DNA of 64,000 nt from Heptranchias perlo (lineage: Eukaryota), in contig NC_090365.1 of NCBI RefSeq assembly GCF_035084215.1, positions 6,138,001 through 6,202,000 on the forward strand, written 5' to 3'. Every line of letters starts with the position of its first letter. The first letter of the stretch is position 1. Of this stretch, positions 9,966 through 63,790 are shown piece after piece. The notes below the pieces were generated by a model. That model had not been told where the DNA came from. It saw only the letters and a list, made by a program, of their open reading frames with translations, and made no database searches. A program made the translations under genes and the position numbers.

Positions 9966-11977
9966 TCACTGTCTGCATCTCTTTAGCGATTCGATGTAAT
10001 CAAAGTTTTTGTGCAAGAACATGATCTGGTCGATGTGGTCTGGCAGCAGGGCTGACCTGCAGGGGTCTGCGGTGCTGCTCGAACAAAATAAGGCCTTCTT
10101 GGCAGGGACCGAGGTGACGGGGATGGACAGGTATCGTTTGGCGAGCTTGGCCACAGCTGGGAACCGGTGCTCGTTGCTCCTCCACCAGTCGAAGGGGTTG
10201 GTATTACGTTTCCGCAGGGGCTCGGCCAGGTAGCTCTCCAGTTGCTGGTGAATCTCCGGCATGCGCTCGGTGGGATCTTCACCGAACAGGAGGTCGTACT
10301 CGCTCTGGCGCTGGCTGGGCTTGTGGATCCCCTTGCGGCCGTGGTGCTTGCCGCCCTCGTCGCGTTCCGTGCCGCTGTGCTCGTCTGAGGAGGAGGAGTT
10401 GCAGGACGAGTGCGAGTGAGGACTGGTCATCGTCCTGGAGAGCATGTTCTTCACCTTATTGTGCACCTCGTCCCGCGTGTCGGCGTTCAGGAAGCGAAGG
10501 TCCTTGAATCGAGGATCTAAGAAGGACGCCACGATGGCGGGGCTCTCCAACATCTCATCGTCGTCCGAGAGATGCCATCGCTTGCCGATCTCGGATCGGA
10601 TCTTGGCACTTACTGTTTTCACAATGCAGCCTGGGTCACCATGGTGGTGCATGAGAGCTGTCATGACCCCATGAAGACATGGTATTAAGGAGGACACGGA
10701 GGCGTTGTGCTCCTCACTTAGAAAAGACGATGCGACTTTAAGTGTCTTGAGGATGGGGAGGAGATCCTGGAGAAGTTTCCACTGGTGGTCAGACAGGTTT
10801 TGGACCGTCAGATGGGCGGCTCGGTCCTCTTCCAAAACCATGCTCACTGCCCAACGCAACTCCAGGAGCCTCTCGCACATGTCAAAGGTGCTGCTCCAGC
10901 GGGTGGCCGTGTCCATCACCAACTTGAGCTTCTCTTTGTTCATCTCTTCCAGCTTGCTGTTGAGTTCCAGGCCCGCCTTGGCGCTGTGGTGAAAGTAGTT
11001 GACGATTCTCCTGGCCATGCTCAGGGTGTGTTGGACCTGGTCCACCTGCAGCCCCAGCTTGATGCACAACTGCAGCATGCGACCAGCGCAGCACAGGCTG
11101 CGCCAGCTGAACCGCTCCTGCAGCAGCCGGGCGCTGCCCAGCAAGCTGCTGGCACTGTCGTGCACCACGCAGCTCACCGCCTTACTGGAGATGCCAAAGT
11201 CTCCGATGACCGAGTACAGCAACTCGCCGATGTTGTCCGGTGCCGGGTTGTACTGGGGCATGGTCTTCAGCACACAACGGGCCAGGTGCCAGTTACAGTC
11301 AATGAAATGTGCCACCACGGTGAGGTAAGCCTGCTTGCCCTGTGAAGTCCAGGTATCGGTGGAGAGGGTCAGCGACTGGACAGAGTGCAAGTAGTGCTCC
11401 AGTTGCTGCGTGGCCAGGTTGTATTTGTGTCTCAGGTTGTTAGCTAAGTGCATGCTGGATGGCATTTTATAACTGGGCTCCAGAAAGCCAAGGAGTAACT
11501 TAAAGCCCTCGTCACTGACGAGTGACATGGGCTGCAGGTCTCTGAATACCATGCCCAGGATCAGGTCGCTAACCATCTCGTCTCTTTTCTCGGAGCGGGG
11601 TTTGGTATCGTGCAGCACGAGTTCGGACATGGTCACCGGCTTGTTCTTCTTCAACTCGGGCTCCTGTCCCATGGATTCAGAGGATGAGGACCCTCCGTCC
11701 TGGTACTGGTGGAGGTCGAGCTCGCTGAGATTGTGTTTGCGCCTCAGGTGTTCCCTCAGGCTGGTCGTGCTGTTGTGGTAACACAGCTGCTTCCTGCAGA
11801 GGCTGCACTCCACGCAGCGCTCGTTCAACTTCTTGAAGAAGTCCCAAGCTTTGGACTTTGGTCGGCAGCTGACAGGCGAAGCTCTCTTGTAATTCAGCTC
11901 GCCCCCCCTCCGCCTTCTGGACCCTGCACCCATGCCGGTGGAGAGATTGTAAGACCGCAGGACCATGGAGAGCTCGT
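9966..11977 (-). CDS. Domesticated hAT transposase / ZBED1-ZBED4-like protein, large final exon (BED finger 2, RNase H-like core, hATC domain)
   Basis: BED finger SKAWDFF..C..C...TTSLREHLRRKH; hAT motifs STDTWTS, VVHDSAS, TRWSS, SFLDPRFK, NPFDWW..RFP..AKRYLSIP, MFLHKN. Acceptor ttttctgcag at 11978; stop at 9966-9968. The ORF-track start at 12002 is intronic. Confidence 0.93.
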
Positions 11978-12892
11978 CTGCAGAAAACACAAAAACCAGC
12001 ACTGCGACGTGACATCCCCTTCACAGAACAGTTCATCAAATAATACAGCACAGAAAGAGGCCATTCGGCCCATCGTGCCTGTGCCAGCTCTTTGGAAGAG
12101 CAATCCAATTAGTCCCACTCCCCTGCTCTTTCCCCACAGTCCTGCAAATTTCTCCCCCTTCAAGTATTCACCAATTCACTTTTGAAAGTTACTACTGAAT
12201 CTGCTTCCACCGCCCTTTCAGGCAGCGCATTCCAGATCATAACAACAGTAATATTGTAGAATATTAGCAACCAACTGCAAATTATTCCAGTGAGACCGAG
12301 ATACAGCTCTGGGCCACCTGCAGCCAGCCCCCGCCCCTTCAGCAACCTGCTGCTCCAGATCATTCTGGGCCCCATCGCCAGTCTGCCTGTAGGATGAAGA
12401 CTGGACTGTGATTCGGTGCTGTTCCCTCGCCTTCTCTCAGGGTTATCCCAGCGTTTATAGAGCGTCCTATTTAATGGAACTATTGTTCTGTAGGTTTTCT
12501 TTCCCTGCTGTTGGGAAGTGTCCACAATGGCGTCCGTGTCCCGTGTGGGGAATCGGAGGTGCAGACCTCTGCCCATCACCCTATGTCGGAGCATCCCTGA
12601 CACTGGCCCTCAACAAACAGCGAGTATCAGCGGATCATGCCAGTGGGGTACGGGCACCGAGCCGTGGGGTACGGGCACCGAGCCGTTAATCAGCGAATCT
12701 GTTTTTGTTTGAGGGCAGGATCTTGCTCAGGAAGAATTTATTCCTAATACATCTGTTTGAAATTTGCTTTTCACTGATTTAAATTTCTGGTCGTTCTGTG
12801 AGTTTGAATCCCCAAGGCAGGTTTAGGATTGGAACTGCTGACAAGAGTCAGTGAGATTCAATCTAATACGTCACAGTGTACAGTGACCGTAC

Positions 12893-22169: not shown

Positions 22170-23375
22170 TTGGCCCAATTGGTAACACGCTCACCTCAGC
22201 CAGAAGGTTGTGGGTTCAAGCCCCACTCCAGAGACTGGAGCACAAAAACCAGGCTGGCGTCAGTACTGAGGGAGTGCCGCACTGTCGGAGGGTCGGTACC
22301 GAGGGAGCGCCGCACTGTCGGAGGGTCGGCACCGAGGGAGCGCCGCACTGTCGGAGGGTCGGTACCGAGGGAGCGCCGCACTGTCGGAGGGTCGGTACCG
22401 AGGGAGCGCCGCACTGTCGGAGGGTCGGTACCGAGGGAGCGCCGCACTGTCGGAGGGTCGGTACCGAGGGAGCGCCGCACTGTCGGAGGGTCGGTACCGA
22501 GGGAGCGCCGCACTGTCGGAGGGTCGGAACCGAGGGAGCGCCGCACTGTCGGAGGGTCGGTACCGAGGGAGCGCCGCACTGTCGGAGGGTCGGTACCGAG
22601 GGAGCGCCGCACTGTCGGAGGGTCGGTACCGAGGGAGCGCCGCACTGTCGGAGGGTCGGTACTGGGGGAGCGCTGCACTGTCGGAGGGTCGGTACTGGGG
22701 GAGCGCCGCACTGTCGGAGGGTCGGTACTGGGGGAGCGCTGCACTGTCGGAGGGGCGGTACAGGGGGAGCGCCGCACTGTCGGAGGGTTGGTACTGGGGG
22801 AGCGCCGCACTGTCGGAGGGGCGGTACCGAGGGAGCGCCGCACTGTCGGAGGGGCGGTACCGGGGGAGCGCCGCACTGTCGGAGGGGCGGTACCGAGGGA
22901 GCGCCGCACTGTCGGAGGGTCGGTACCGAGGGAGCGCCGCACTGTCGGAGGGTCGGTACCGAGGGAGCGCCGCACTGTCGGAGGGTCGGTACCGGGGGAG
23001 CGCTGCACTGTCGGAGGGTCGGTACTGGGGGAGCGCCGCACTGTCGGAGGGTCGGTACTGGGGGAGCGCTGCACTGTCGGAGGGGCGGTACCGGGGGAGT
23101 GCCGCACTGTCGGAGGGTTGGTACTGGGGGAGCGCCGCACTGTCGGAGGGGCGGTACCGAGGGAGCGCCGCACTGTCGGAGGGGCGGTACCGAGGGAGCG
23201 CCGCACTGTCGGAGGGTCGGTACCGAGGGAGCGCCGCACTGTCGGAGGGTGCCAATCTTTGTATGAAACCTTAAACTGTTCAAGTGGACTTTTGAGATCC
23301 CACTATTGAAAGAAAAGCAGGGAGTTCTCCCAGTGTCCTGGCCAACAGTCCTCCCTCCACCAACATCAAAAACAG
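22170..23375 (+). mobile_element. SINE copy with an internal 27-bp minisatellite expansion (about 22262-23250, about 36 copies)
   Basis: SINE head (gggttcaagcccc) precedes, and SINE core (gagatcccacta..gtgtcctggccaac) follows, tandem ggtaccgagggagcgccgcactgtcggagggtc units. Confidence 0.92.
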
Positions 23376-26660: not shown

Positions 26661-27971
26661 TCACCTGGTGTCCAGCCTGCGCACCCTGACCTTTTGCTTG
26701 TAATGATACTCCTTCAGATATTCCTTCAGGGTGTTGGGAATCGGGAGGAACTCAATGCCGTCGTAAGTGGTGCAGCTGGAGATGACGGCCCGACAGATGT
26801 GCTGGAGGCTGAAGGGGAAGGTCCTATTGATGGGGCTGGAGAGCAGGGGCTCAAAGAACATGCAGGAGTTGGGGTCCTTGTAGTGCTCGAGGAGACCGGT
26901 CACAGTGGAGGCGTGGAAGACGCTGGGATCGTGGACGTCGAAGCTGAAGTTGTGGTTCCACTGCTCGATGCGGGCGTGGAGGGAGCGGCTGTACCTACGG
27001 AAGCTGACCGAGAAGAGGTAGTCCTCCTGGGCCGAGTCCCGGAGCAGGAAAGCCCCCTCTGGCTTGCCTTCCAGCAGTGCTTCGGCCTGGTACCTGTCCA
27101 TGACCCCCCAGTAGCACGGGAACGTGGTCAGTTCCAGCAGGTCGGGCACCAGGCAGTGGATGTAGTCGATCTGGGTGTGGGCGCGGTAGCCATCTTTGAC
27201 CTCCACGTTCTCGGGGGGCTGTTGGGGAGCAGGGGTCTCTTCGACGGGCGCGCTCTCCTGCAGCTGGAGGGTGGCGCGATCGTCTCCCGCCAGCTCGTTC
27301 ATGCCCGGCGCCAGCTTGGGCCCCAGTTTGTACAGGGGGTTAATCTGCGCCGTCACCTCGAAGGTGTGAATCTGTGCGTGAGGCGGAGGCTCAACACCCT
27401 GCTCAATACTGATCCGCCTCCTCTCCCTCAGCCTGTCGTCCTCATCCTCGACCGGAGTCCCACTGGGAGTGACGGTGTCCGGGAATGGAGCGTTCTGGGA
27501 GACGGGGGCCGTGTGCTGCTTAATGAGGTACCATTTCTGGGCCAGGTCCGAGCCTGAGGGGAAGGGGCATTTATCAAGCATCAGTTCACTGATGTGGATC
27601 TTCCTTTTGGAGGAAGACAAGATGGCAGAGTGCAGACTGTGGGTTTTAATGGGGAAACACTGTCCCACTGCGTCCTGTATCCTCTGCCTCAGCGACCTGT
27701 TGGGCAATTTGCAATCTCCAAAGCTATGGGAATCCGTTTCCTGGGCCAGATCCGCGTCGTGTTTTCCAGGTTTGCCGCCCGAGGGAATCCGGGCCTTTCC
27801 TTGCGTTTGACCGGTTCCCGAGGCACCGTCGGAAAGTTCGGATTTATGGGAATTCCTGTTCTTCTTTTTGCTCCGGGTTTCCCTCCGTTCTTCAGGGTCT
27901 CCCCGCCTGACCTTTGGCCTCACGGACCGCTTCTCCTTCTCTGGCCGCTCGTTCTCTCCCGGTTGAGACAT
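26661..27971 (-). CDS. Suppressor of cytokine signalling, SOCS4/5 subfamily (socs9/socs5b-like), 436 aa, single coding exon
   Basis: SOCS4/5 N-terminal blocks [16 protein letters not shown] and [22 protein letters not shown]; SH2 [28 protein letters not shown]; SOCS box [10 protein letters not shown]. First in-frame ATG (AAACCATGT) at 27971; exon acceptor at 28205. Confidence 0.95.
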
Positions 27972-28325
27972 GGTTTGCCAGTCTCGCTCCTCCAGTTCAC
28001 CGGCCACCCCGAGCTTTAAGACAAACGCCCGTCCAGCGATCGCTGACGGATCGAATCCTTTACCATCGGCCAATACTCGGTAGCGAGACGATCGATTTCA
28101 GCAGCCATCTCGCCTCGGACTCGACCCCCGCTTCCTCTCGCATTCTGAATCCCCCCGTTCCTCGGACCTGGAATCTCCAAGAACTCGACGGAAAATCTCA
28201 CTCACTGCAAATACAGAGAAAACACCGTCTCTAAATGAGTGAAACCTCCCCAATTCTGATCAGATTCCCCTCCTGAGCACGGGAATGGGGGGGCACGGGA
28301 CATGGGGCGCGGGATAGGGAGACGG

Positions 28326-29700: not shown

Positions 29701-29714
29701 TCTTTTCTGAGGGC

Positions 29715-31661
29715 GCCGGCTCTCGCCGGGGTACGGGTTCCACAGACACTGACTCTCACTGGGGTACGGGTTCCACACACACTGACTCTCACTGGGGTAC
29801 GGGTTCCTCAGACACTGACTCTCACTGGGGTACGGGTTCCACACACACTGACTCTCACTGGGGTACGGGTTCCACACACACTGACTCTCACTGGGGTACG
29901 GGTTCCTCAGACACTGACTCTCACTGGGGTACGGGTTCCACAGACACTGACTCTCACTGGGGTACGGGTTCCACACACACTGACTCTCACTGGGGTACGG
30001 GTTCCACAGACACTGACTCACACTGGGGTACGGGTTCCTCGGGCACCGACTCTCGCCGGGGTACGGGTTCCACAGACACTGACTCTCACTGGGGTACGGG
30101 TTCCACAGACACTGACTCTCACTGGGGTACGGGTTCCACAGACACTGACTCTCACTGGGGTACGGGTTCCTCGGGCACCAGCTCTCGCCGGGGTACGGGT
30201 TCCTCGGGCACCGGCTCTCGCCGGGGTACGGGTTCCTCGGGCACCGGCTCTCGCTGGGGTACGGGTTCCTCGGGCACCGACTCTCGCCGGGGTACGGGTT
30301 CCTCGGGCACCGACTCTCGCCGGGGTACGGGTTCCTCGGGCACCGGCTCTCGCTGGGGTACGGGTTCCTCGGGCACCGACTCTCGCCGGGGTACGGGTTC
30401 CCACAGACACTGACTCTCACTGGGGTACGGGTTCCTCGGGCACCGGCTCTCGCTGGGGTACGGGTTCCTCGGGCACCGACTCTCGCCGGGGTACGGGTTC
30501 CACAGACACTGACTCTCACTGGGGTACGGGTTCCTCGGGCACTGACTCTCACTGGGGTACGGGTTCCTCGGGCACTGACTCTCACTGGGGTACGGGTTCC
30601 ACAGACACTGACTCTCACCGGGGTACGGGTTCCTCGGGCACCGACTCTCGCTGGGGTACGGGTTCCTCGGGCACTGACTCTCACTGGGGTACGGGTTCCT
30701 CGGGCACTGACTCTCACTGGGGTACGGGTTCCTCGGGCACTGACTCTCACTGGGGTACGGGTTCCTCGGGCACCGACTCTCGCCGGGGTACGGGTTCCAC
30801 AGACACCGACTCTCGCCGGGGTACGGGTTCCCACAGACAATGACTCTCACTGGGGTACGGGTTCCCACAGACACTGACTCTCACTGGGGTACGGGTTCCA
30901 CAGACACTGACTCTCACTGGGGTACGGGTTCCACAGACACCGACTCTCGCCGGGGTACGGGTTCCACAGACACTGACTCTCGCCGGGGTACGGGTTCCAC
31001 AGACACTGACTCTCACTGGGGTACAGGTCCCACACTCACTGACTCTCACTGGGGTACGGGTTCCCACAGACACTGACTCTCGCTGGGGTACAGGTTCCAC
31101 AGACACTGACTCTCACTGGGGTACGGGTTCCACAGACACCGACTCTCACTGGGGTACGGGTTCCACAGACACTGACTCTCACTGGGGTACAGGTCCCACA
31201 CTCACTGACTCTCACTGGGGTACGGGTTCCCACAGACACTGACTCTCGCTGGGGTACAGGTTCCACAGACACTGACTCTCACTGGGGTACGGGTTCCACA
31301 GACACTGACTCTCGCCGGGGTACTGGTTCCACAGACACTGACTCTCACTGGGGTACGGGTTCCCACAGACAATGACTCTCGCTGGGGTACGGGTTCCTCA
31401 GACACCGACTCTCGCTGGGGGACGGGTTCCACAGACACTGACTCTCACTGGGGTACGGGTTCCACAGACACTGACTCTCACTGGGGTACGGGTCCCACAC
31501 ACACTGACTCTCACTGGGGTACGGGTTCCTCGGACACTGACTCTCACTGGGGTACGGGTTCCTCGGACACTGACTCTCACTGGGGTACGGGTTCCACAGA
31601 CACTGACTCTCACTGGGGTACGGGTTCCTCGGACACTGACTCTCACTGGGGTACGGGTTCC
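29715..31661. repeat. 33-bp minisatellite, about 58 copies, upstream of the SOCS promoter
   Basis: ggggtacgggttccacagacactgactctcact and variant ggggtacgggttcctcgggcaccgactctcgcc. Confidence 0.97.
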
Positions 31662-33045
31662 AAATTTAGCTTTCAAGACTGAGATCGATAGATTTTTGTG
31701 AGGCGAGGCTATCAAGGGATATGGAGCAAAAGCGGGGAAATCGAGTTGAGGTGCAGATCAGCCGTGATCTAATTGAATGGCGGAGCAGTCTCGAGGGGCT
31801 GAATGGCCCACTCCTGTTCCTGATGTTCCTAAATAGCCAACAATGTCCATGGATTCGGGAAAAGAGAAACAGAAGGTGGACCAATGGGTCTTTTCCTGTC
31901 TGCCATTTTCATATGTTCGTAAATACCGAATTCCACCGTTGGACAATGTGATGCTGAAAGAGACCAGTGCTCCAGTCAGACTGCACCTTGAACACTGAGT
32001 CCCGTTCTGGTCACAGACACACAAAGGCTGATCCCTGTATCAAAGGATTGAGTTACGAGGAAAGACAGGAGAAACTGGGGCATTTACAGCCTTGAAGGGA
32101 GGCATCTGGGAGGGGACCTTATGGTATACAAGAGATTCAGTGGTGTGGAGAAGATAAACCCGGGGCATTAATTCAGGGCCTGGATGGTGGAGCTCGAGCA
32201 GAACTGTCGCTAGGAACGTTCGAGAGTTTCAGGAAGAATTTCTTCACACAAAGAGCGATCAACACTTGGAATGTTGGGATGGAGCAGTGGAGGTGAAAAC
32301 CTTAGACGGAGTAAAGGGAGGGAGGAGGAGGAGTGAGGCCGAGTTGAATGGGCCTCCCCTTCCTGTCCGAGGGGCGAAAGCGGCCACTTTTCCACACCGC
32401 CACTACTGCTTCTGCCCCGGTCGCAGGGTTCACACGAGTCGGGGTTCATCTGCCAGCGGGGGGGGTTCGCTGGGCGTGTGGCACAAGACTGTACTGTGCC
32501 AGCCCGATACCTGCAACCCTTCCCAGCCCCCCACCCCCCACCATAGGAACAGGAGGAGGCCATTCAGCCCCTCTAGCCTGTTCCACCATTCAGTTAGATC
32601 ATGGCTGATCAATGGGGCAATATAGAATCATCGAGCACAGAAGGAGGCCATTCGGCCCATCTTGCCTGTGCCCTTTTGAAAGCTACTATTGAATCTGCTT
32701 CCACCACCCTTTCAGGCGGTGAATTCCAGATCATTACAACTCGCTGCGTAAAAAAAAATTCACCTCATCTCCCCTCTGGTTCTTTTGCCAATTACCTTAA
32801 ATCTGTGTCCTCTGGTTACCGACCCTCCTGCCAGTGGGAATAGTTTCTCCTTATTTACTCTAACAAAACCCTTCATGATTTTGAACACCTCTATTAAATC
32901 TCCCCTTAACCTTCTCTGTTCTAAGGAGAACAATCCAGCTTCTCTAGTCTCCCCACCTAACTGAAGTCCCTCGATGGTCCCTGGTGCCATCCTAGTAAAT
33001 CTCCTCTGCACCCTCTCCAAGGCCTTGACATCCTCCCCAAACACA
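31662..33045. mobile_element. Cluster of CR1-like LINE 3' fragments in both orientations
   Basis: FKTEIDRFL on +; [29 protein letters not shown] on - (32760-33044). Confidence 0.8.
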
Positions 33046-40900: not shown

Positions 40901-43900
40901 TGTCTCTTCCCCCCCCCTCCACCACCCTCCTTTTTTTAATCCTTGCAGTTTCATTTTTATATAAACACAAAAAGAGAATTTGCCTAGCAATCCCTCTGGG
41001 TGGTTTATGAATGCTTACATGTCGCGGATGTCCGTTATGAAATGTGTGTCTGCCCTCACTCTTCCCTGCCCAGTGCACCAGCATCAGCACCGCTCTCCGT
41101 GCTCAACGTGTCTTCGAGAAGGATAGAAGCAGGAAGGGTGCGGAGGGGTGCTTTTACACTGGATCAGAGGCCAGCAGCTGGGATCGAAACTGATGAACAC
41201 CACTTTCTGTAATAAATGGCAACTTCCAGGAACATGAAATAATAGAACAATCCAGGAAAAAAACAAAAGAGTTCCAACTTTTAAGCACTTTTGGATATTT
41301 ATTGTTTAGTAAGAAAATTATTTTCCTGGCGTCAGACAGAACACAAAGGGATGTCCTAACTTTACACCAGAGCAGAGATTCCTGGTTTCTTTAGAAGCTG
41401 CACTCTGGGAGTGGATTTCTTTGAAGTTTAGCAAATGGATAATGGTTGGGTCAAATTCTGGAATCACAAGGAAAGGGGAAAGAAATCCCAACTTGTTACT
41501 GTGGGTTTTAATCACACCGGTGATGAGCGTCTTTACCCGGGTGAATAGGTGTGAGGAGTACAAACAGCCCACACTCACCTCTCTCAAATGATCCCTTTCC
41601 AGGCAACGCTCAGCTGTACAGCCTCAGTCCACAAGAGGGGCCAGTGGAACCTGAACCCAATTCCTCCCACAGTGTTGCTGCACGAAAGCCATTGTTTCAG
41701 GATACGTAGCCCCCCGGACCCTGGCCTGGTGCAGCTGTTTTCTTTCCCTCGTCTCCCAGAGGAGCCAACTGACACGGTGACACCATTCTTTATCATCAAC
41801 TGAGGTAACAAGTGTCGACATGTTGGTTGAATGCGGTGGGTGGCCCAGCCATTCTCACCCAACAGCCATACACGTACTCTCGGTGTGGGGGGGGGGGGGG
41901 GTGGGGGGGGACTGGGTCGTCATCAAGGGTGGGAAACCTGTCGGACTTAATCATCTTTTTAGCTTGAGGATCAATTACTGCCACCCTGCTGAGATCAGCC
42001 CAGCCCAGATATCAAACCTGGGACATTTCAGATCGGCATGGTTCTGTTCCACGCTGGGTGGGGCAAAGTTATCAACAGAACTTTTTGGTACTTTCCGAAA
42101 CGAGACACAACTGCACAACATAAACAAGTAACTTTACGTCAGGACTCCCATTATGTCCAGGTGATTCCAGGACTAGTGGCCTGTGAGGTACATTAATGAC
42201 GAAACTGGAGCTAAACATCCTAAGATCCATTACCCAGGATTTGAAGTTGCCTGTGAGAGAAATGTTAACGTGCTCCCAGAAATGGATATATTCCAGTACG
42301 TTTAATTGTCAAGGTGCTGAAAGAAAGTGAAGTGAAACTTTAGAAACCAGGAATGCGTCCGTTCTGGCCTTCAAAAAGCAAAATATTTAAGGAACAGGCA
42401 TATTCTGAAGTTTGGCTATTAAATTCTCCCCACCCCCCCCCCCCTCCCCCGCCCGGCAGCAAAAACCCAGCTGCTACAGACTTAAAACTTTTCAACACCA
42501 GCTCCAACACTGCTTCAACATTCCTCTATTCTTTTAGACTTCAAACCCTCCCCCCTCCCAAAACCCTCTCCAATCCTGTCTTGAGAAGTACAACTTCCCT
42601 TTTACACGAGGAAGCAAACCTGTTGCAAAGGCTTTTAAAAATAATAATCATTGTGTAATAGAAAAAAAAAGGGTTACTTAACTTGTGTTTTAAACATGTA
42701 TCGCAGCTTGTAAAAAGGGGGGAGGGGGGTGAACCTTCAAACACAAATGAACTTTAAATGACTTTGGTTTAGGTCCCAATCCAGTTTGATCCATTCCAGA
42801 CCTTAGCAAGTTCCTAAAAACAGCTTGTGTCTGAGTTACCCAGCCTACCCTGCATTACTTACACCTTCACTTATGGGCAGGCTTTGCTCTTTCATTTTGA
42901 GTGGAAGTTAGCCAGGTGTTTCTGCGCAGGTTTGTGGAGCAAAAGTGTAATAACCCCTCCCCCTCCCCCCATATCTCGTCCCAAATTCATACAGGTTGAG
43001 CTCAGTACTCGAAACTGAACAGTCACCAAATTATTCTACTTTGGTTTCTGGCCCTTCTCCTGAGCTGGACAGATAACTTGCAGTAGATAAGCTTCCAATT
43101 CAGCTCCAGTCGAGACAAATTTGATTCCAGAAGAATTTCAAAGCCAAGCTGTAGGGAGCCGAACTAACTCGAAAGCCTGAAACCTCAACTGCTTAATCCC
43201 GTTGCCCGTCCTCAGTGGGTTTCAAACTGTTTGAAGTATTTTTAAAAACATGGATTCTATGGTGTAAAACTTACATACAGTGCAGCTTTCTAAACCAGAC
43301 ACAAGGCGTTTGCTACACAAACGAGAAGGGGCGGGGAGGAGTAGACAAGCTGGGCAGAAGGAGGATCAGCAAACCCTGAACTAAGCCACAACAAAAGCTA
43401 TGTAAACATGGGACAGGACCCTGCAAGAGATGAACTTTGTCCAGTTCCTAGATTGGAAAATAAAAACCTCGAGATTGGTCAACACAAAGCCTCTTATCAG
43501 GGTCTGAAATTTTACTTCAGCACAGTTTAGAGTCAGCATGCTCCCGAATGAATATTGCATTTTAACGGGTGAGTTAAATAGTCTAAATGCTGCCACAAAA
43601 TGATCCATTCGCAAGGTCTGGAATGGGAACAGATTAAAGTGGTAGTTCAGTTTTTGTCAAGTTACTCAGAAGGTTGTGCAATACATACCTCACGATAGCA
43701 CCGTACACTCACCAGGCACACAATACAACAAGGCTGCAACATACGCTGTACAGATGTCTGAATAGTAACAGGGTTGAACCTTACAGGGGACCTGCCCCTC
43801 TATACCAGTTCAAGCCTCTAATTTCAAGTGTTATTCTAAAACAGGAAACTGTTTCTATGGTAAAGTCCTGGGCAGCTGCACAACTGTTGATACAAAAAAA

Positions 43901-45289
43901 GAAATCTCCAAAACAGACCAATACACCCGAGGGTGGTAAAGTGGGATATTTATAAAACCCAAATCTTATTTTACTTGACCTGTTGGGGGAGGGAGAATGG
44001 AAGATTCCTAAGAGGACTAACGCTAAATTACTGCTCGAATACAAAAAAAAAGGATGAAACCAGGCAGTTTTAAAACTTGGGAGAATTGCATTTTGTGACG
44101 CTCAGTGCATGGTTTAGCCCCAGACTGCCTTGAAAGCCACATTTATTAGCATAGTGACTTACTGCATTTTAGTTTAAACCACTCCAGTAGAAGTTGTAGT
44201 GTTCCTAGGTCTCAGGCAAGCGATTCAAAATATAGAAATTGTTCTCAAGGTAAGAAGTCCACCTTTCATCAAACCCCGACTTTTAAGGTGCAATATTTAA
44301 TTTTGGGTTTTTTTTTTGCTTAAAAAGAGAGGCATCGCAGGATGTGATTGCATTCTGCACTTCCTCATAGTGGGGGGGGGGGGGGGCGAAAAAAAAAAAG
44401 AGGATGAGTCGCCCCCTAGGCTGTACTCTGGCACACCACGCACACAAAAAGCCCTCCCTCGCCTATTAGTTCCCTGCTCTCACTCTCTCGACCTGCTGCA
44501 AGAAAGCCTCCTCTTTAGGAAAGGGAAGAACACTTAAAATTACATTAAATCCATCCGGGCTTTATTCGTGACCTACAGCATTAACAACACTGCCACAGAT
44601 CCAACAGTCTGACTGTTCCAGCAAAAAAAAATGACCAGCCAAAGATTGAAGACGGATTTAAACAATGACTTTTAGGGCAGCTGTCCTTATTTTTGCATCA
44701 CTTAATTTTAGCAAAAACGATGGATCATGCGGCTTGTAATCTTATTCCCCAGTTAGTCACAGCTCGGCCTTTCACCAACACAGCAGACAAATCCTTTAGG
44801 GAGTGAACTTCACAAGCTGGCCATGGTTTAATGGCAGGACTCCAACTGGTGCATGAGTTCAGTTGAGTAGGAAGAGGGACAGAATTGGGTTGGGGCTGAG
44901 AAAGCATAGACAACATGGTGACTCAAAGGGGCAAGTGCCTCATTGCAACGGCACATTCAGAATGTGGGGGCTGTGGCAGAGTGACAGGACGTGTGTTCCA
45001 GCTAATTTAAGAGGGAAGGAAATAGCTTTAGGAGGGAAGAGGGGATAAAAACACAAGCTAGCTGAACAGTGGTGCCTTCTATCTGGCTTGTGTAACAGCA
45101 ATCGCTCTTTCACGCAGTTTTAAACAGGTATTTATATTTTGCAGGATACATATTGGATTTGCAGTCCCACAGGAACCAGCCACACTTCCAATGTCACTAC
45201 ATTTAATAGGCAAATCCATCCGCCTTTGTAAAGGATGACGGGAGCTTAACATTCAAGCCCAACGTTACAAATTTACCAAATCGCCTGTG

Positions 45290-45539
45290 CTTAAATTAAC
45301 AATTGTAAACAATTTTACAACACCAAGTTATAGTCCAGCAATTTTATTTTAAATTCACAAGCTTTCGGAGATTTTCTCCTTCCTCAGGCAAATGTTTCAA
45401 GATTTGCCTGAGGAAGGAGAAAATCTCCGAAAGCTTGTGAATTTAAAATAAAATTGCTGGACTATAACTTGGTGTTGTAAAATTGTTTACAATTGTCAAC
45501 CCCAGTCCATCACCGGCATCTCCACATCTTAAATTAACA
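45290..45539. mobile_element. Young Penelope-like palindromic insertion with 12-bp TSD
   Basis: Perfect 95-bp inverted arms 45299-45393 / 45402-45496, 8-nt loop, about 31-bp one-sided tail, direct repeat cttaaattaaca at 45290-45301 and 45528-45539. Confidence 0.85.
45401..45443 (+). ncRNA. Minimal type I hammerhead-ribozyme-like motif (mirror copy on - at about 45352-45394)
   Basis: CTGAGGA core (45408-14), stem II GGAGA/TCTCC, GAAA (45429-32), palindromic AGCT as stem III, stem I GATTTGC/GTGAATT. Confidence 0.6.
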
Positions 45540-48500
45540 GGCAGTGCAGGTGGTGACAGGCCATGGTTTTACCTGGCTAATTTGCCATTCCTGGCACTCT
45601 GATCGTTGTCAGGTGCCAGGAGCAATGTGCTCAACTGCAGCCGTGAATTGCCATTGGCCGAGAACGGTCTTTGGAGGCAGGATAGAAAACAGCAGTCTCT
45701 AAGGGGCCAGCGACACACTGCAAGCAAATACAGACCCATTCTCCCTGCACCCTCCCAGCAATACAAATGGCCAACACATGTGCTGCATTCATGCATATGT
45801 TGTAACAGCTTAGCAAAACACAAACATAAGTGACGGAAAATATATCTAGGGAGCCGCATTTTCATGGTGGCGATAGTGTTTAAATAATGAGATGGGTTGT
45901 TGCCTTTAAAACAAGTTTTAACTGAACAAAAAAGGTAAATGAAGTGGGAACATGGACCAAAGCATTCTGCAGGCATGCTCAGAGCGGGGAGCTCAAGGTC
46001 CAGTACATTTTAAAAAAAGCAAGAACAAAAACCATCTTTTTAGCCTCCCCTCGGAGTCTGGATAAACCACACACAGAGATCCAAACATGAGGAGCATCTA
46101 TTCACTCTACACACAGCGACACCAATTAGGGTCAGATTCTTTGGCAAACTATCAAGGCGTCCATCCTGCTTTAATAATGTGCCCGTGACTGTTCTTGTAT
46201 AAATCAGCACTTTCAAGAATAACTTTCCTGCAGCTCGGTAAGGTGGGGGGGGGGGGGTTGTAAAAGTACATTTCATGCCCCAGTCGCAAAATCATAGACC
46301 ATGGCACAAGTTTCAACAGGGATTTTTGATGCTATGCAAAGATGTTCCTTTGTACAAAATGATATATTCTCGATTACATGCTCCCTTACTTTCTTTTGTC
46401 ATGTCTCTGGAAGTTGGAAAAACAAGGGTTTTGCTGTACATCGGGTAGGGAATTGTTGATTTAGGAAGGGCTCACCCTCCATCTTCCTGCGGGCAGGGTG
46501 ACCAGCCCTCCTGTTTTTGAGATGGACAGTCCAGTTTCGCCAGGACAGCAATTGTGCTATTTGAGAAAAGGACAGCTTAAAAAAAAAAGTGGTTTTCCAA
46601 TCCTGGGCTTTTTTTTTTTAAGAAGCAAAAAGGACGTGAGCTGCCACGAGCAGGCGATTCCGTGCATGGGGCAAATCACCTCCTATTCTTGGCGCACGCA
46701 GCACCGATCCCATTTTTAAAGTTTATAAAAAAAAAATGCCCCAGTCTGGTTTGGGACTGGGCAGAAGGTGAGCATCCTACCCCTGTACCCGCCTCTTCAA
46801 GACGACAGTTAGGACAGCATTTCTTACCTAATGAAACAAAATCTGTTGACCAGAGTGACAGGACCATTTAAAAAAATAATTCAAAGTCATTTAAAGTCGT
46901 GCCTGTGTTCTGTGTTGTACATGTCCCCCCTCCTAAAATGTAAACACATAAAACTTCTTTGCTGAAGCCACAAGACTCCAAACAAAAACAAAATGTGATT
47001 CATATAAACAGGCCCTTATATAACTGAAACCCTTTCGAGAATTATTCTCACTTTTCCATACATACATTTACTATATACATGAAACCTTTTTTTTTCTTTG
47101 AACAACATACACATTTTCTCCCCCCCTCCCCCATTCTGTGCCTCATGCTAGAAAATTATGACCTATGAACTCTCTTTAAATGCAACTGTAAGCGATCGGG
47201 GAGGATTACACAAATACACGGCTCCCCGATTTCTTGCTTTTTTTTTTGTTAAATTTTTCAAAAAAAAGTTACCTTTCCTTACATCGTCACAAAAAGAAAT
47301 ACCTTGTTCTGAAAGCACCAACATTACAAAACTGCAGAAAACAGTTTTTTTTTTGTGGTCGATACAGATGTTGCATTTTGATCAATTAGGGGAGGTACTG
47401 GGCCTTTTCCCTCTCTCCGTGCACCCCCCTCACCCCCTTCCACCCTGACTAGAGGCAGGACGCTGGTTGTTTTCGGTGTAATCGGCTTGCAGTCCCGTAG
47501 CTGCATATTTACGTTCGGACATTTCCTACCGGCAAATGAAAAAAAGGCACGAAAAGCAACCGTGCTTTTACATAGTGAAACGCCAATATCCCACCCGGCT
47601 ACAGAACACTTCTGCGTTTGAGCAGCAAACACAGAAACTGAATTCTCAGTGCGTATGTCCGATTTCTCCCCGAGGTCTCTCACTGGGTGCCTAAACGTAG
47701 CACAGCCTTGGGTCCTTCTTCGCTGTGCCACTGCTCAATAATCCAATTGGGGTGCCCCTGCAACAAGCCACATGTCACGCTCTCTCCCCTCACCCCAAAG
47801 CAAAAACCCGGTCCGGCAACTCCAAACTGGCAAAATCTACTGCAGACACAACTGGGATGAAGTGTTAGGACAGCTCTTCAATTCCATCCTAAGACAAGAG
47901 TTCCCTGGGATGGGGGTGGGAGTTATAGGTTCTACCCCAAAATTTTTGCAGCGAGCTTCTCAGCTGCTCTGGTACCAGACCAAGAGCTCTGGGAAAAAAA
48001 GTGTTCTACTCTGGGTTTCATAGGATTCATTTGTAACTGCAAGCCCTACACACTGATGAAGGTGGTTGTTTGGACAGTGGTGGTGGTGGGTTTGGGGAGG
48101 GATGAGTATTTATCATCCTGGTTTAATCTTTCACAGGGCTGGAAAAACAGAGTCCAGTTTCTCATGGTCAAGACCCAATACCAGAAACACTCCCTCGGTT
48201 ATAGTATGATAAGCGCTGGAAAGCTCAGAGCTCCTGGAAGGGTTTTAGATAAACGCTTAGTTTGTTTATCACTGCTCGTAGGTCTTGCTACTGGGGTTTA
48301 AATTGGAGCCACGTGGCCAGATTCCTTCAAGGCCGCTCATTTCTTTCAACCATTCCAAAATCCACGCGAGTATGGAAATCCCGTCCTGAAGGAGTCAAAC
48401 AGGATTTCCGACTCCTGCCATCTCAAGCTCTTCATCCATGGTGAATGTTCTGCAAGTCAGCTAGCTCCCAATTCCCCAACCTCCCGAAAAGGTCAAGACA

Positions 48501-49561
48501 GCGTTCATGAGATTCAAAAATAAAACAAAACAGAATCACACATCTGACCCACAGCCAAACGAGAACGACGAAACGGTCATCGAGCCTCCGCCAGGAGCCG
48601 AGTCATCGACTATGTTGTTGATGGGGGCATTCGTAGTGATAGATTCGGTGGGGGTGGGGGGAGTGCCTCATGCTACGAATCCATAGTTGAGAAAGTGGGA
48701 AAACAATATCAACCACAACGCATTTGAGAAGGAGTAAATTCAGTCCAAACCGTGCTATTCTGGAGCCCGTTCAGATGTATTTTTGCTGTCAATACAAGCA
48801 CAAAGATACAATTGTATATAAGCAACGCAATAACCCTAGAAAAAAAAAAGTCAGTTGTTTCCCCATTTTGCTCACCACATTGATTAATCCTCTTTGCAGC
48901 ACCTCAACTGGAACATGCTGGAATAGCAGATTGGATAATGCAACATATTTTTATTTTTTTTTAGTAATGCGGGCTTCAGAACAGAACATCTCTTTTATAT
49001 ATTTTAAAACTTTCTTAATGGTTAACTTGTATTGTATTCATCACTTTGACAGTTGACCAGAGGTTTTAGGTTAAATTAGTGATAGACAGATACAAATGCC
49101 AGACCTGTACTACTGCCAAGTACTGCATGCACTGGTACCAGACCTATATGACAGCACAGTGATTAACATGTACAGGTTTATGTTAAGACCATTGTAACAC
49201 CAGCCCAAGAGTTCCGGTCTCCTCTCTTTCTGTCATGAGCACTGCTCACCACCTTACACTGTCAATCACTAATTTCAGGTTAGTTCCCAGTTTTTAAATT
49301 AAGTTTTGAGCTATACGACTTATTTGTACCGGTGCAGAACCTTTTACCAGATGGGTACTGAAAAAAAGTTAAAACAAAAATATACTGGAAAACAGACCGG
49401 AAGTAGTTTGGGTCCCGGTCTATTTCCCCCAAGGTTAAATAAAGGTCAGCGGCAATATACATTGTAAGGTGTAGTGACCCTCTCAAACTTCAGTGGCATT
49501 TCCTGCAGCTGCTGAGTGATGTCAGTCTCTCAGTAAGTGTTCACAAGCGAAGTACAGCGTA

Positions 49562-49590
49562 CTAAATAGTCGATGTCTTCTCCACTCCAT
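49562..49590 (-). CDS. SAMD4B: SAMD4B last coding exon
   Basis: tttcaacag acceptor; (D)GVEKTSTI* matches the Smaug C-terminus. Confidence 0.9.
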
Positions 49591-49784
49591 CTGTTGAAAT
49601 AAATTAAATCATTTCAGTGAAGAACCGGAAAAGGGCAGAATTACAACAACCAGAACATACTCATTTACTTTATTTATCAGGGTGGTTTGATAATGCAATG
49701 TGTCCCCTGCTAGCTGAAGCCCCCAGTGTGAATTCCAGCAGGAACCACTGACTGCCACCTACATACCCACTCCATCCAACCCCC

Positions 49785-50465
49785 ATAGCTTGGCGTCCTA
49801 TTTGACTCCGAGATGAGCGTCCCACCAGATATCCGCTTCATCACTAAGACCACCTACTTCCACCTCTAATATCGTGCGTCACTGCCCCTGCCTCAGCTCA
49901 TCTGCTGAGCCCCTCATTGATGCCTTTGTTACCTCTAGACTTGACTATTTGAATGCTCTCCTGGCCAGCCTCTCATCTGCCACCCTCCATGAAATTGAGC
50001 TTATCCAAAACTCTGCTGCCCGTATCCTAATTCGCACCAAATCCCCATCTCCCATCACCCCCTGTGCTTGCTGACCTACATTGGCTCTCGGTCAGTGAGC
50101 ACCACGATTTTAAAATTCTCATCCTTGTGATCAAATCCCTTCATATCTCTGAAACCTCCTCCAGCCCTACAACCCTCCAAGATCTCTGCGCTCCTCCAAT
50201 TCTGGCCTCTTGTGCATCCCCAATTTTAATCGCTCCACCATTGGTGGCCATGCCTTCAGCTGCCTAGGCCCTAAGCTCTGGAATTCCCTTCCCTAAACCT
50301 CTCCGCCTCACTCTCCTCAAAACCTACCTCTTTGACCAAGCTTTTGGTCACCTGTCCTAGTATCTCCTTATGTGGCTCGGTGTCATATTTTGTCTGATAA
50401 TCGCTCCTGTGAAGCGCCTGGAGACATTTTACGTTAAAAGGTGCTATATAAATGCAAGTTGTTGT
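49785..50465 (+). mobile_element. L2-like LINE 3' fragment
   Basis: AFVTSRLDYLNALLA..IQNSAARIL..PITP..LHWL RT C-terminal motifs; tail gctatataaatgcaagttgttg. Confidence 0.85.
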
Positions 50466-52263
50466 TGGAAGCAGAGACCGTGAGAACAGATCACCGCCAA
50501 CATACCGAAACAAAAAGCAAAAAAACTACAGATGCTGGAAATCCAACAGGCAGAATATGCTGGAACCACTCAGGTCAGTCAGCATCTGTGGAGAGATAGA
50601 GGACTTAACATGCCGGGTGTGGACCCATCAAAACATGTTAACTCCACTGTTCTCATCACACATGCTGCCACATCTGCTCAGCGTTTCCAACACAAACACA
50701 CTTACTGTCCACCCAAGAAGCTTTATGAACCACATCATCCAGCATCGATTGAGGCTCCTTACCCTTCAAGCTCGAGCCTGATCTATGCTGAGGATCACTC
50801 AAACGTACAAAAACAAAAAAGCTGATCACCTGGAAGCGATTCCTCTCACCTCTCCCTCCCCAATGCAATCTTTATTTCTTTATTTTATTGATGCCACTAG
50901 CATGGGTTCTCCTCTAAACATTCCTCTCTCACTCCTAAGCTCCAAATATGCCATCCTACACATTTACTCCTCCTTGCATTCTCATTATGTTGAAATCAAG
51001 ACTCATTATACCATCTCCTGTGCCAAGACCGCCCTCAGTCTGTTCTCCTCCATCATACAACTTTCTGGCTTTTCAAACCCAAGCTGGCGTCACCTAATAC
51101 TAGTGTCCAACATCATCTATCCTACCCTTTCCAATCTTGGTGTCCCGCACCTTACCTACATTTCTCAATTTTAAAAAAGTCCTTAATTTGCACGTGTCGG
51201 GTAACTTGAATTATAACTGAACAAAGCAAGTAAATATTGCATAACTAAGTAAATTAACATTTATTACAAAAACTCATACACCTATTGTGCGTTGAGCTTA
51301 ACTGCGACCGTATATGTTTATTGAATGTCCTTAGTGTTTTATAACTCATTCCAGCCAGCTCTAAAGGAACATGTTTTTTCTTTTTTAAAAAAAAGGATAT
51401 ATACTTTTAACATCTTACAGAAATAAACAGTGTGAAGAAGTTTAAAAAGGTACAGGGGTCATTTTTTTGGGGGGGAAGGGGGGAAAAAAAAAGGGATAAC
51501 GAAAAAAAAAAAGGGATAATGCTTGCAGCAGCCGTAGTCCTCTGGACTCATTCCCCCCGCTACATTCACTGCTGACAAACAAATCACTGGCACTCGGTAC
51601 CGTGGCAATTTTTTCCAAATACACTTATTAGAAAGATGATATCCCCGATGGCTCGTATGTCAGTCCGCCGTGGAGCTGAGCTATTCTGAACAGGGACGGT
51701 CCCAGATTCAATCCATGGTGCGCACTGATTTAAGGAAAGGGTAACAGGGAGGGATTATATTATTGGCCCGCAGCACCCTGGGCTAGTGAGGCAGGAATAA
51801 AGAAAGTTAGCCGGTGATTTGGCCGTTGATCACCAAATGATCCCCGGCAGAACATGGGTGTCAAGGTAGGACTGATGAAGCTCAGATGTGATCCCTCTCC
51901 TCCCCCCCCACCCCCACCCAATACCATGGTGAGTAGCAGCCAAAATGAAGAACGTTCCCTTGGTTGCAGCCGTAGCAAAGCAGGAGCCATGGACAAAACA
52001 CACATTTGTCACGTGTTTTATAAAATTCCACATTGAACCTTTACCATCAGCAGACAGAGGAGACTTTCATCTGGGCTGGATTTATACCCAAATCCCAGAG
52101 GTGAAAGATGAACATCTAATACACTGCACCAACCTGCCTCCCTCCTCCCAATATTTTGCACTTATAATACTGAATATTCTTACTCTGAATTGGACGAACC
52201 TCACTGCATAAATTCTCTAGTCCTTAAAATTCAACGGTGGAATCCATGATTGCAGGCACTTAC

Positions 52264-57438: not shown

Positions 57439-58561
57439 CCGTCTCCACGGACAAATTAACTCCCAGAATTATATCATTTTATTTCTGATTATATCAGTCA
57501 CAAATATGACCATATTCGACCAAACATTTTCTATAGCGTACATGACAGTTCCTTGCCCCCTAAAAATAAACAGTCAACTTACAAATTAAATTCCATTTAA
57601 ACAAACCCCTCAAACTTCCCATCCACATTGCAATTGCTGTGAAGTCTCTCTCTCTCCTCCCCCAACCCCTCTCCAATATACATAATCAATAAACTTGACC
57701 CAAAGTATGCTCTCCCCCACGAGCACATTACCCCTAGTACACTTTGCTCAGCCCGGGTATGATCCAAGGTGAAGTATACACGCACACAGACTAAATGCGT
57801 GGCATGGCATGTTCAGGGGTTCCACCCACAGACTTTTAGTTCCCAGGGAGGTTCCATATCTCAGCACCACTGGCCCCACTCTCTAGCCCCGGGGTCCAGC
57901 CCGCTATCCATAGCCCTTAACAGAGAGCTTGGAGCTTCTCCATGTCCCCACTGCCAAAGGCTGCTGGTGCTTCTTATATAGCACTTTGTACTTTTTGAAT
58001 GAATACTTGGGGGTTGATAAACCCCTTGTTACTGATTCCCCAACCAGACAAAATGATCTGTCCCTCTTTACACCCATCCATCAGCACGTCTCTGTGTTGA
58101 ATCCCCTCTATTACTCTCCATGCTTTTCTATCTTAGTTATTCTCTTCCTGCAATCAAAGATGCAAAAGGGAACAAGTGGGAGAGCGGGAATAGCGAGAAC
58201 AAGCAGGAAGAGCGGGAATGGTGAGAGGTCGCACAGAGTAGAGAGCCGCAGCAGTCAGAGGCAGAGGAGAAAGAGAGCGTATGAGGGAAAGGCAGACACC
58301 ATGAGCATGTGCAGACATGGCATACCGAAGTAAATTTACAGAAATGTACAGCAGGGCCACAAGCATCTATCGGAAAAAATGAGGGACTAATGTTTCAAGG
58401 GAAGACCCTTCATCAGAACCGAAAGCTGATAGTGTTTCTTCCCAAAATATTAACTATGTTTCAGACACTGAAGGCTGTGCTGTGCAGCTTTTATTTCAGA
58501 TTTCCAGCAGTTTCCACCCTCCCTCACCCCTCAGATCTCAAGTATGATACCGAAAACTCAC

Positions 58562-61436: not shown

Positions 61437-62225
61437 CATTACCACAGGATGCCAGCCCTCACCCCACACCATTACCACAGGATGCCAGCCCTCATCCCAC
61501 ACCATTACCACAGGATGGCAGCCCTCACCCCACACCATTACCACAGGATGCCAGCCCTCATCCCACACCATTACCACAGGATGGCAGCCCTCACCCCACA
61601 CCATTACCACAGGATGGCAGCCCTCACCCCACACCATTACCACAGGATGCCAGCCCTCACCCCACACCATTACCACAGGATGCCAGCCCTCACCCCACAC
61701 CATTACCACAGGATGCCAGCCCTCACCCCACACCATTACCACAGGATGCCAGCCCTCACCCCACACCATTACCACAGGATGCCAGCCCTCATCCCACACC
61801 ATTACCACAGGATGCCAGCCCTCATCCCACACCATTACCACAGGATGCCAGCCCTCACCCCACACCATTACCACAGGATGCCAGCCCTCATCCCACACCA
61901 TTACCACAGGATGGCAGCCCTCACCCCACACCATTACCACAGGATGCCAGCCCTCATCCCACACCATTACCACAGGATGCCAGCCCTCACCCCACACCAT
62001 TACCACAGGATGCCAGCCCTCATCCCACACCATTACCACAGGATGGCAGCCCTCATCCCACACCATTACCACAGGATGGCAGCCCTCAATCCCACACCAT
62101 TACCACAGGATGGCAGCCCTCAATCCCACACCATTACCACAGGATGGCAGCCCTCAATCCCACACCATCACCACAGGATGGCAGCCCTCAATCCCACACC
62201 ATCACCACAGGATGGCAGCCCTCAT
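61437..62225. repeat. 33/34-bp minisatellite, about 23 copies, in a SAMD4B intron
   Basis: cattaccacaggatg(c/g)cagccctca(c/t)cccacac; begins about 20 nt from the donor at 62245. Confidence 0.97.
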
Positions 62226-62245
62226 CATAACATGCAAGTACCCAC

Positions 62246-63489: not shown

Positions 63490-63790
63490 CTTTCCCCATG
63501 ACTCTGGTGAACTGTCCAGGTATGTCACCTTCAGGTACAGGGGCTGCTGCTGACTCTCCATCACATGTTGAGACACTCTGGGACTGAAAGCCACCAGACG
63601 TCGATTCCTTTTCGGCAGCTGCTTTGGTTGTTCGGCTGTCTGTGCCTAGTCCGGCTGTAGTAGTGGAGGAGTCTGTGTTGTGGCCCTCTTTAGGGGTCAT
63701 TTGAGGTGGGGTGTAAGCTTTGATCGGGGTTATAATTATCTGCTGCAGCTCCTGAAGGGCATTTCGCAGGTTTCCTCCCTCAAGAATGTC
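63490..63790 (-). CDS. SAMD4B: SAMD4B (Smaug homolog 2) coding exon (301 nt); upstream exons beyond window
   Basis: DILEGGNLRNALQELQQIIITPIKAY...EGDIPGQFTRVMGK; the N-terminal part is SAMD4B-type; ttaatag / gttagt. Confidence 0.93.

Follow-up and report, generated by a model that had tools for sequence, protein, structure and literature searches.

Penelope-like elements (PLEs) leave insertions of characteristic layout. An inverted, 5'-truncated copy beside the 5' end, combined with a tail of 30-40 bp that is often present at one end, has been described as typical of these elements (PMC8557442). A second account reports PLEs with inverted pLTRs, a 31-bp tail, target site duplications (TSDs) of 8-10 bp and palindromes at head-to-head junctions, the latter being ascribed to self-priming on an antisense template (PMC3846280). 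In those passages of the cited PLE papers that deal with inverted ends, their formation is still termed undefined.

In vitro, a PLE protein, Poseidon of Anolis carolinensis, acts on both strands of AT-rich target sites, cutting and extending them. The templates in this system are sense RNAs on which synthesis initiates internally, at two start sites on either side of the tail; these lie in an AC-rich stem-loop, 111-118 nt into the ORF. The PLE hammerhead, which is protein-assisted in vitro, cuts at +26, and uncut RNA is used as template (PMC11167929). The minimal hammerhead of metazoan PLEs was defined in PMC4209133, where motif pairs on opposite strands were found 100-700 bp apart and minimal hammerheads exhibited no cleavage as monomers and low cleavage as dimers. 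Non-LTR retrozymes, in turn, are described as same-strand tandem arrays that are reported to be excluded from exons (bioRxiv 10.64898/2026.07.22.740005).

Here, we analyze a palindromic insertion in a 64-kb window, i.e., the whole stretch of DNA under study. Its structure is the already known PLE signature and not a new system. As a fresh insertion with a known empty site, however, it allows both priming points and the junction to be located with single-base precision. Our survey of mostly open literature, covering papers without their supplements, returned no account of this shark family, nor of PLE cDNA fold-back beyond PMC3846280.

Architecture of the insertion

The insertion comprises 238 bases and forms a hairpin stem of 95 bp. 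Inverted-repeat comparison within the window placed the two arms at 45299-45393 and 45402-45496, each 95 bp in length and with zero mismatches between them. They constitute the longest perfect inverted repeat in the 64-kb window (loops of up to 50), in which the element is present as a single copy. On both sides the insertion is flanked by a 12-bp TSD (left copy 45290-45301, right copy 45528-45539), with A/T at 10 of the 12 positions. The last three bases of the left copy also match the element, as a microhomology for the primer. Since 45299-45301 of the left arm belong to the TSD, the first inserted base of the inverted copy is 45302. This inverted copy (45302-45403, - strand) is tail-less and 5'-truncated and includes the 8-nt loop at 45394-45401; the two bases on each side of the loop (45392-45393 and 45402-45403) represent the microhomology of the inversion junction. 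The direct copy (45402-45527, + strand) is likewise 5'-truncated and measures 126 nt, composed of a pLTR-like end and a tail. The tail itself (45497-45527, +) is found at the right end only. It is 31 nt long, or 34 nt including the microhomology, has an A+C content of 74% and would pair back on the arm in sense RNA, resulting in a stem-loop. Within the hairpin stem, the insertion also places an AAUAAA hexamer on the mRNA strand (45343-45348, -). Perfect 95-bp arms, an 8-nt loop, a one-sided tail, a 12-bp TSD and one hammerhead core per strand had all been described in an initial sequence-only reading of this DNA, and all of them are present.

Five of five structural features of EN+ PLEs are found at this locus: a hammerhead near the end, the 31-nt one-sided tail, the inverted 5'-truncated copy, the TSD and an AT-rich target. 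The Penelope-like origin assumed in the sequence-only reading is thereby borne out, as the hammerhead-bearing end, the head-to-head inverted copy, the one-sided tail and the TSD match the published signature, and we assign the insertion to the PLE type with high confidence. The possibility that would have spoken against such an origin, a MITE, is not supported, as the right arm does not abut the TSD, the 31-nt tail lying between them. We consider it likely that the insertion is the stump of a PLE beside its own inverted copy, with the tail at one end, and that the ribozyme travels as a passenger in the mRNA.

A palindromic insertion of greater age, derived from another family but laid out in the same way, is located at 17645-17892. 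Its arms (17688-17879) are 84% identical, a one-sided extension of ~29 nt lies to the left, and a decayed TSD of 14 bp (11/14) is still visible. It holds remnants of a hammerhead-like stem III, and related fragments occur at 50513-50594 and 58489-58509.

Host gene and probable 3' UTR

Protein matches confirm that the host gene is the SAMD4B orthologue, as had been proposed. The exon at 63491-63790 (-) matches a Smaug-like protein of Heptranchias perlo, a shark, with 100% identity. Its best non-shark matches carry the names SAMD4B/Smaug 2, and a second shark paralogue reaches only 51-55% identity; thus, the SAMD4B label holds. Six exons of the gene were placed on the - strand, and a Pfam search with two single SAMD4 exons gave no domain match. 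The last piece of coding exon spans 49562-49590 (-) and ends in the stop codon at 49564-49562. The insertion sits 4,022 bases past this stop codon, inside the apparent 3' UTR, and not downstream of SAMD4B as previously stated.

To this region (43000-49900) we compared contigs from four of 12 listed sequencing runs: X1, a DNA run; X5 and X8, RNA-type runs of the same sample as X1; and X10, a run of a relative. The RNA-type reading of X5, X8 and X10 is a guess drawn from their departure at a splice acceptor and is not on record. Contigs of X5, X8 and X10 depart from the genomic sequence at the last splice acceptor, 49592, and carry 2,280, 2,667 and 26 further letters, respectively, while the X1 DNA contig continues past 49592 into the intron. 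Overlapping contigs cover the distance from 49592 to 43000 completely in X5 and X8 and nearly completely in X10. These chained contigs, which are strand-blind and none of which runs from the coding part to the insertion site, point to a likely 3' UTR of at least 6.5 kb (43000-49561, -, reaching at least to 43000) that is apparently continuous and holds the insertion.

The stretch 43000-49592 is ~95% conserved in the contigs of the relative and, apart from the insertion, free of within-window repeats. A second high-copy short repeat, common to the relative, lies in the last SAMD4B intron (49789-49900). Elsewhere in the window, an uninterrupted frame of 684 codons (9966-12020, -) encodes a BED finger and a hAT dimerisation domain and may represent either a ZBED-like domesticated or a young hAT transposase. 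Further frames are a ribosomal S12-family frame, MRPS12-like (20447-20899, +), and a single-exon SOCS/SH2 frame, SOCS4/5-like (26661-28097, -). Long GC-rich minisatellites with a periodicity of 33/66 bp occupy 22259-23250, 29711-31662 and 61437-62226.

Empty alleles and age of the insertion

Empty-site alleles were found in all three runs of the sample. One contig each in X1, X5 and X8 skips exactly 238 bases (between 45289 and 45528) and retains a single TSD copy, with 12 bases that fit on either side of the skip, which establishes the 12-bp direct repeat as a true TSD. At the orthologous site, a contig of the relative skips 240 bases and is empty as well. Because the site is empty both in X1, X5 and X8 and in the relative, the ancestral state is the empty one, which persists in the species. 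The insertion is very young, in agreement with the earlier suggestion of a very recent event, and probably polymorphic.

Possibly, the sample of X1, X5 and X8 is the very source of the window. Among the matches listed for X1, X5, X8 and X10, no piece bridges a filled junction, and the filled allele is represented by the window only. Short-read assemblers commonly lose junctions into very abundant repeats. We infer heterozygosity for the filled and the empty allele. Position 45757, the only difference near the element in X5 and X8, reads G in both of these RNA-type assemblies and A in the window, the X1 DNA contig and the relative. It is likely a heterozygous SNP, which could be used to phase the insertion. 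An explanation of this A>G change (+) by ADAR editing was rejected, as it runs in the wrong direction for an mRNA of the - strand and lies outside the hairpin. Both RNA-type assemblies carry the empty allele; that both also carry the non-window base at 45757 has a chance of 1 in 4 under balanced expression. As a weak lead, the filled allele may be under-represented in RNA.

Repeat family

The family to which the insertion belongs is very abundant in this shark. In X1, 15,399 contigs match 43000-49900 (including the second repeat near 49800), 7,077 of them fitting two places, compared to only 145 contigs in X10, of which one fits two places. Summed depth in X1 amounts to 1.8 million over the element vs ~8-10 on the flanks, a ratio of ~2 x 10^5 that is not a copy number. 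Copies of the family end at 45528 in 116 (X1), 20 (X5) and 11 (X8) contigs with diverse flanks, the agreement past 45528 being 0.38-0.49. Among the matches listed, four contigs in X5 end at 45298. The positions 45528 and 45298 are the two ends of the insert in the window; among the listed matches, a pile-up of copy ends is strong at the far tail boundary (45528) and slight at the near one.

Past 45528, the consensus of loose ends begins with ATG in X1, X5 and X8, and the tail may end just before the start of an ORF in longer copies. A search for such a longer copy or an RT/GIY-YIG ORF with two patterns yielded 0 matches in metagenome, viral and prokaryotic collections, as expected for shark DNA. 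In X1 and X5, an opposite-strand joint connects the tail end at 45528 to the hammerhead start at 45388. Such a joint would be expected if a partial tandem in head-to-tail orientation existed at another genomic position; a unit of this type could form the dimer in cis.

Hammerhead cores

A descriptor comprising the core CUGANGA, a stem II of at least 4 bp, the segment GAAA-NN-UH and a stem I of at least 3 bp matched the window at three positions, i.e., 45408 (+), 45387 (-) and the unrelated 58416, and gave 0 matches in 200 dinucleotide shuffles. The first match corresponds to a minimal type I hammerhead at 45400-45444 (+), in which a bulge, a 5-bp stem II and a palindromic stem III are found; its stem I counts 8 bp with three G-U pairs, and cleavage is predicted after 45436. 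On the SAMD4B mRNA strand, the counterpart spans 45353-45393 (-), with a stem I of 6 bp, two of them G-U, and a predicted cut after 45359. Stem III is a self-complementary stretch of 4-6 nt with a computed stability of -2.5 to -4.3 kcal/mol in trans, and stem I on the mRNA strand was calculated at -0.9 kcal/mol. Small PLE hammerheads are said to cleave as dimers, a finding reportedly made by Lunse et al. in 2017.

With core, stems I and II and a self-complementary stem III in place, the designation as minimal type I hammerhead with a palindromic stem III is upheld. A hammerhead scan had also been proposed: our own descriptor finds both cores, whereas the Rfam hammerhead models gave no match at E<=10, neither for a 2-kb region nor for a single arm. 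Other Rfam matches were generic hairpins only (miRNA models) and stayed below the gathering score. The cut previously placed after 45436 (+) is correct in position, but it refers to the strand opposite to the SAMD4B mRNA.

Three variant rows of the family, compared by eye, differ at the variable core base, the bulge and loop II. In the same rows, the loop-closing A-U pair of stem II is replaced by G-C in a compensatory manner, and stem I is of Watson-Crick type where the copy in the window has G-U pairs; one of them also alters C3. These thin data of three rows would fit selection on the hammerhead fold within the family. A second, degenerate minimal hammerhead of another family, with a non-palindromic stem III, lies in a SAMD4B intron at 58416 (-).

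Formation of the palindrome

The geometry of the insertion fits the two-start model derived in vitro in 2024 (PMC11167929). In the mechanism that we propose, the PLE enzyme would nick both strands of the AT-rich target 12 nt apart. Reverse transcription would start from the bottom-strand end at the distal tail end (45527/8, 1-nt match), and the top-strand end would prime 31-34 nt further in, at 45493-45496, via a complementarity of 5/6, giving rise to the tail-less copy. Both cDNAs would run through the uncut hammerhead and stop a few bases beyond. The longer top-strand cDNA could then fold back on a 2-nt microhomology, its last two bases pairing with 45392-45393. By extending on itself, this left cDNA would generate the sense strand for the right arm; the right cDNA would anneal to this strand, and repair would finally seal palindrome and TSD.

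We lean towards the fold-back step, with a confidence somewhat better than even. In X8, three contigs track the left arm through the loop to 45403 and then diverge, which suggests that the left, tail-less cDNA contributed the loop as family sequence. In that case, a tail-bearing cDNA folding back by itself could not yield the loop in its present orientation, and priming must have occurred twice. The 2-nt pairing has a computed energy of 0 kcal/mol; it is predicted to be unstable alone and would need the enzyme.

Joints between left and right arm in contigs of X1 were used to address the junction geometry. From 15 of the 92 joint rows and 12 of the 61 in-between rows we took fourteen distinct joints, after removal of duplicates, backward joints, one joint of X5, one on the opposite strand and two at the empty site. 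As many as 12 of the 14 fall within 13 nt of mirror symmetry, where 33% would be expected (permutation p 0.0009 with a cut-off chosen afterwards; median test p 0.017; uniform model 7e-5). Several of the joints share an end, and the deepest one sits on the natural hairpin of stem II. In so abundant a family, near-symmetric joints may be fold-back artefacts of the library. Overall, the junction geometry points to cDNA fold-back. One joint that starts at 45437, the base after the predicted cut, was discounted as evidence (chance ~0.31).

The same PLE insertion could also arise if two cDNAs joined between molecules by annealing of the 2 nt and fill-in, without any fold-back. The product sequence would be identical and both target strands are extended in vitro (PMC11167929), so we regard this route as possible, if rather unlikely. 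Independent stops, however, would not cluster near symmetry as 12 of 14 joints vs 33% do, provided that the joints are genomic, and the zero mismatch between arms in a diverse family follows automatically from fold-back. Self-priming on an antisense RNA, which in print has been put forward for head-to-head PLE palindromes (PMC3846280), appears improbable at this locus: the templates used in vitro are sense RNAs with internal initiation (PMC11167929), the cDNA is itself antisense, so that antisense RNA is not required, and this process alone leaves unexplained that the two ends fall on the two tail boundaries.

Even less probable in our view is a dedicated non-autonomous palindromic element, similar to a retrozyme and copied as a whole unit. 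An amplified palindromic subfamily could account for the stem II junction with a depth of 369 vs ~8 for the flanks, yet this junction lies on a natural hairpin and is likely a hot spot or an artefact. Moreover, the 14 junctions all differ and none is at the loop of this insertion, most listed family contigs diverge before the loop at 45388/45407 (41 + 24 contigs), and retrozymes are same-strand tandems, whereas the insertion has one core per strand. Of the active non-autonomous ribozyme family suggested from the sequence, activity is supported, and the family is abundant; a dedicated palindromic family is not needed, because an ordinary 5'-truncated insertion with an inverted copy explains the layout, and junctions occur at many positions. 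A DNA-transposon MITE or an assembly fold-back artefact would agree with a short, palindromic, TSD-flanked sequence whose filled allele is known from the window only. We consider both very improbable in view of the one-sided tail, the heterogeneous inner ends, the hammerhead core and the exact 12-bp TSD vs the empty allele; an assembly artefact would furthermore mirror flanking DNA and not insert a repeat end with a tail.

Predicted behavior of ribozyme and hairpin in the host mRNA

The hammerhead in the 3' UTR of rodent Clec2 is active. For the insertion described here, the sequence-only reading had envisaged a conformational switch, in which folding of the ribozyme competes with the hairpin in SAMD4B RNA. 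As the copies are arranged head to head, the antisense arm is transcribed first on either strand, and the hammerhead emerges into its perfect complement. In computations on the full RNA, the energy cost of enforcing stems I and II is 63.2 kcal/mol for the mRNA strand and 66.5 kcal/mol for the other strand. The advantage of the hairpin already amounts to 52.7 kcal/mol at 6 nt past the cut site, compared to a cost of 8.7 kcal/mol for forcing the hammerhead without the antisense arm. Since the cores lie on opposite strands, no dimer can form within one transcript. Free cofolding of two arms gave stem-swapped dimers, an outcome that does not bear on the catalytic dimer.

A switch could draw on the intact core on the mRNA strand and on protein assistance as seen for the PLE hammerhead in vitro (PMC11167929). 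Still, it would have to overcome a penalty of 52.7-66.5 kcal/mol with the antisense arm made first, and it would need a partner in trans held by a duplex of -2.5 to -4.3 kcal/mol, next to a weak stem I. Minimal hammerheads furthermore exhibited no monomer cleavage (PMC4209133), and the insertion is too young for evidence of selection. The proposed switch is therefore not supported, and we rate it as very unlikely: the hairpin is favored by 53-66 kcal/mol and the cores lie on opposite strands. Instead, the ribozyme is predicted to be locked in the 95-bp hairpin.

The dsRNA stem and the additional AAUAAA are the features through which the host could be affected, if at all. The palindrome is a plausible dsRNA substrate, and by analogy to inverted Alus (PMC4378195, PMC3458544), editing, retention, altered translation or dicing of the filled-allele mRNA would be possible. 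Tentatively, and with more doubt than confidence, one may extend this to a scheme in which fold-back of cDNA is the regular last step of PLE integration in this shark, and in which the hairpin silences its own ribozyme, turns the host mRNA into a dsRNA substrate, lowers or truncates the filled SAMD4B allele and feeds small RNAs against the family. If true, head-to-head PLE palindromes, long unexplained, would find an explanation on a sense template, and fold-back would generate cis-regulatory 3' UTR alleles in one step; one heterozygous individual would suffice for a test. The apparent coexistence of a filled and an empty allele makes it possible to measure, by comparing one with the other, what a perfect 95-bp hairpin does in a conserved vertebrate 3' UTR.

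Comparison with known systems

With the PLE insertions of PMC3846280 and PMC8557442, the locus shares the head-to-head inverted copy, the 31-nt one-sided tail, a short TSD at an AT-rich site and the palindrome at the junction. It differs from those described there in that the direct copy is only 126 nt long, so the copies meet as one perfect 95-bp hairpin, and in a TSD of 12 bp vs 8-10 bp. Similar to Poseidon (PMC11167929), an AT-rich target, the use of both strands, an AC-rich stem-loop tail, two start sites and the copying of an uncut hammerhead are seen or proposed here. From the hammerhead cut to the start, the distance in Poseidon is 85-92 nt (111-118 minus 26); here, 91-92 nt separate the cut from the far tail end. 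Unlike in Poseidon, stem II is devoid of an ATG, and the text of the Poseidon paper, as far as available, gives no model of inverted products.

The hammerheads resemble those of PMC4209133 in their conserved core, the bulged base before stem II and a palindromic, loopless stem III. In contrast to the latter, as described there, stem II comprises 5 bp instead of 7-8, G-U pairs lie beside the cut in stem I, and a perfect hairpin encloses the motif. Non-LTR retrozymes (bioRxiv 10.64898/2026.07.22.740005) are comparably short, non-coding and PLE-derived and carry a type I hammerhead, whereas the insertion is a single inverted pair with one core per strand in a likely 3' UTR. As in the 3' UTR of rodent Clec2 (PMC6155905), a hammerhead is present, here in a likely 3' UTR; unlike the one in Clec2, it is predicted to be inactive. 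Inverted Alu pairs likewise place retroelement dsRNA in mammalian 3' UTRs (PMC4378195, PMC3458544). In contrast to these, the hairpin in the probable SAMD4B 3' UTR stems from one insertion event, is perfect, has a loop of only 8 nt and is apparently still segregating.
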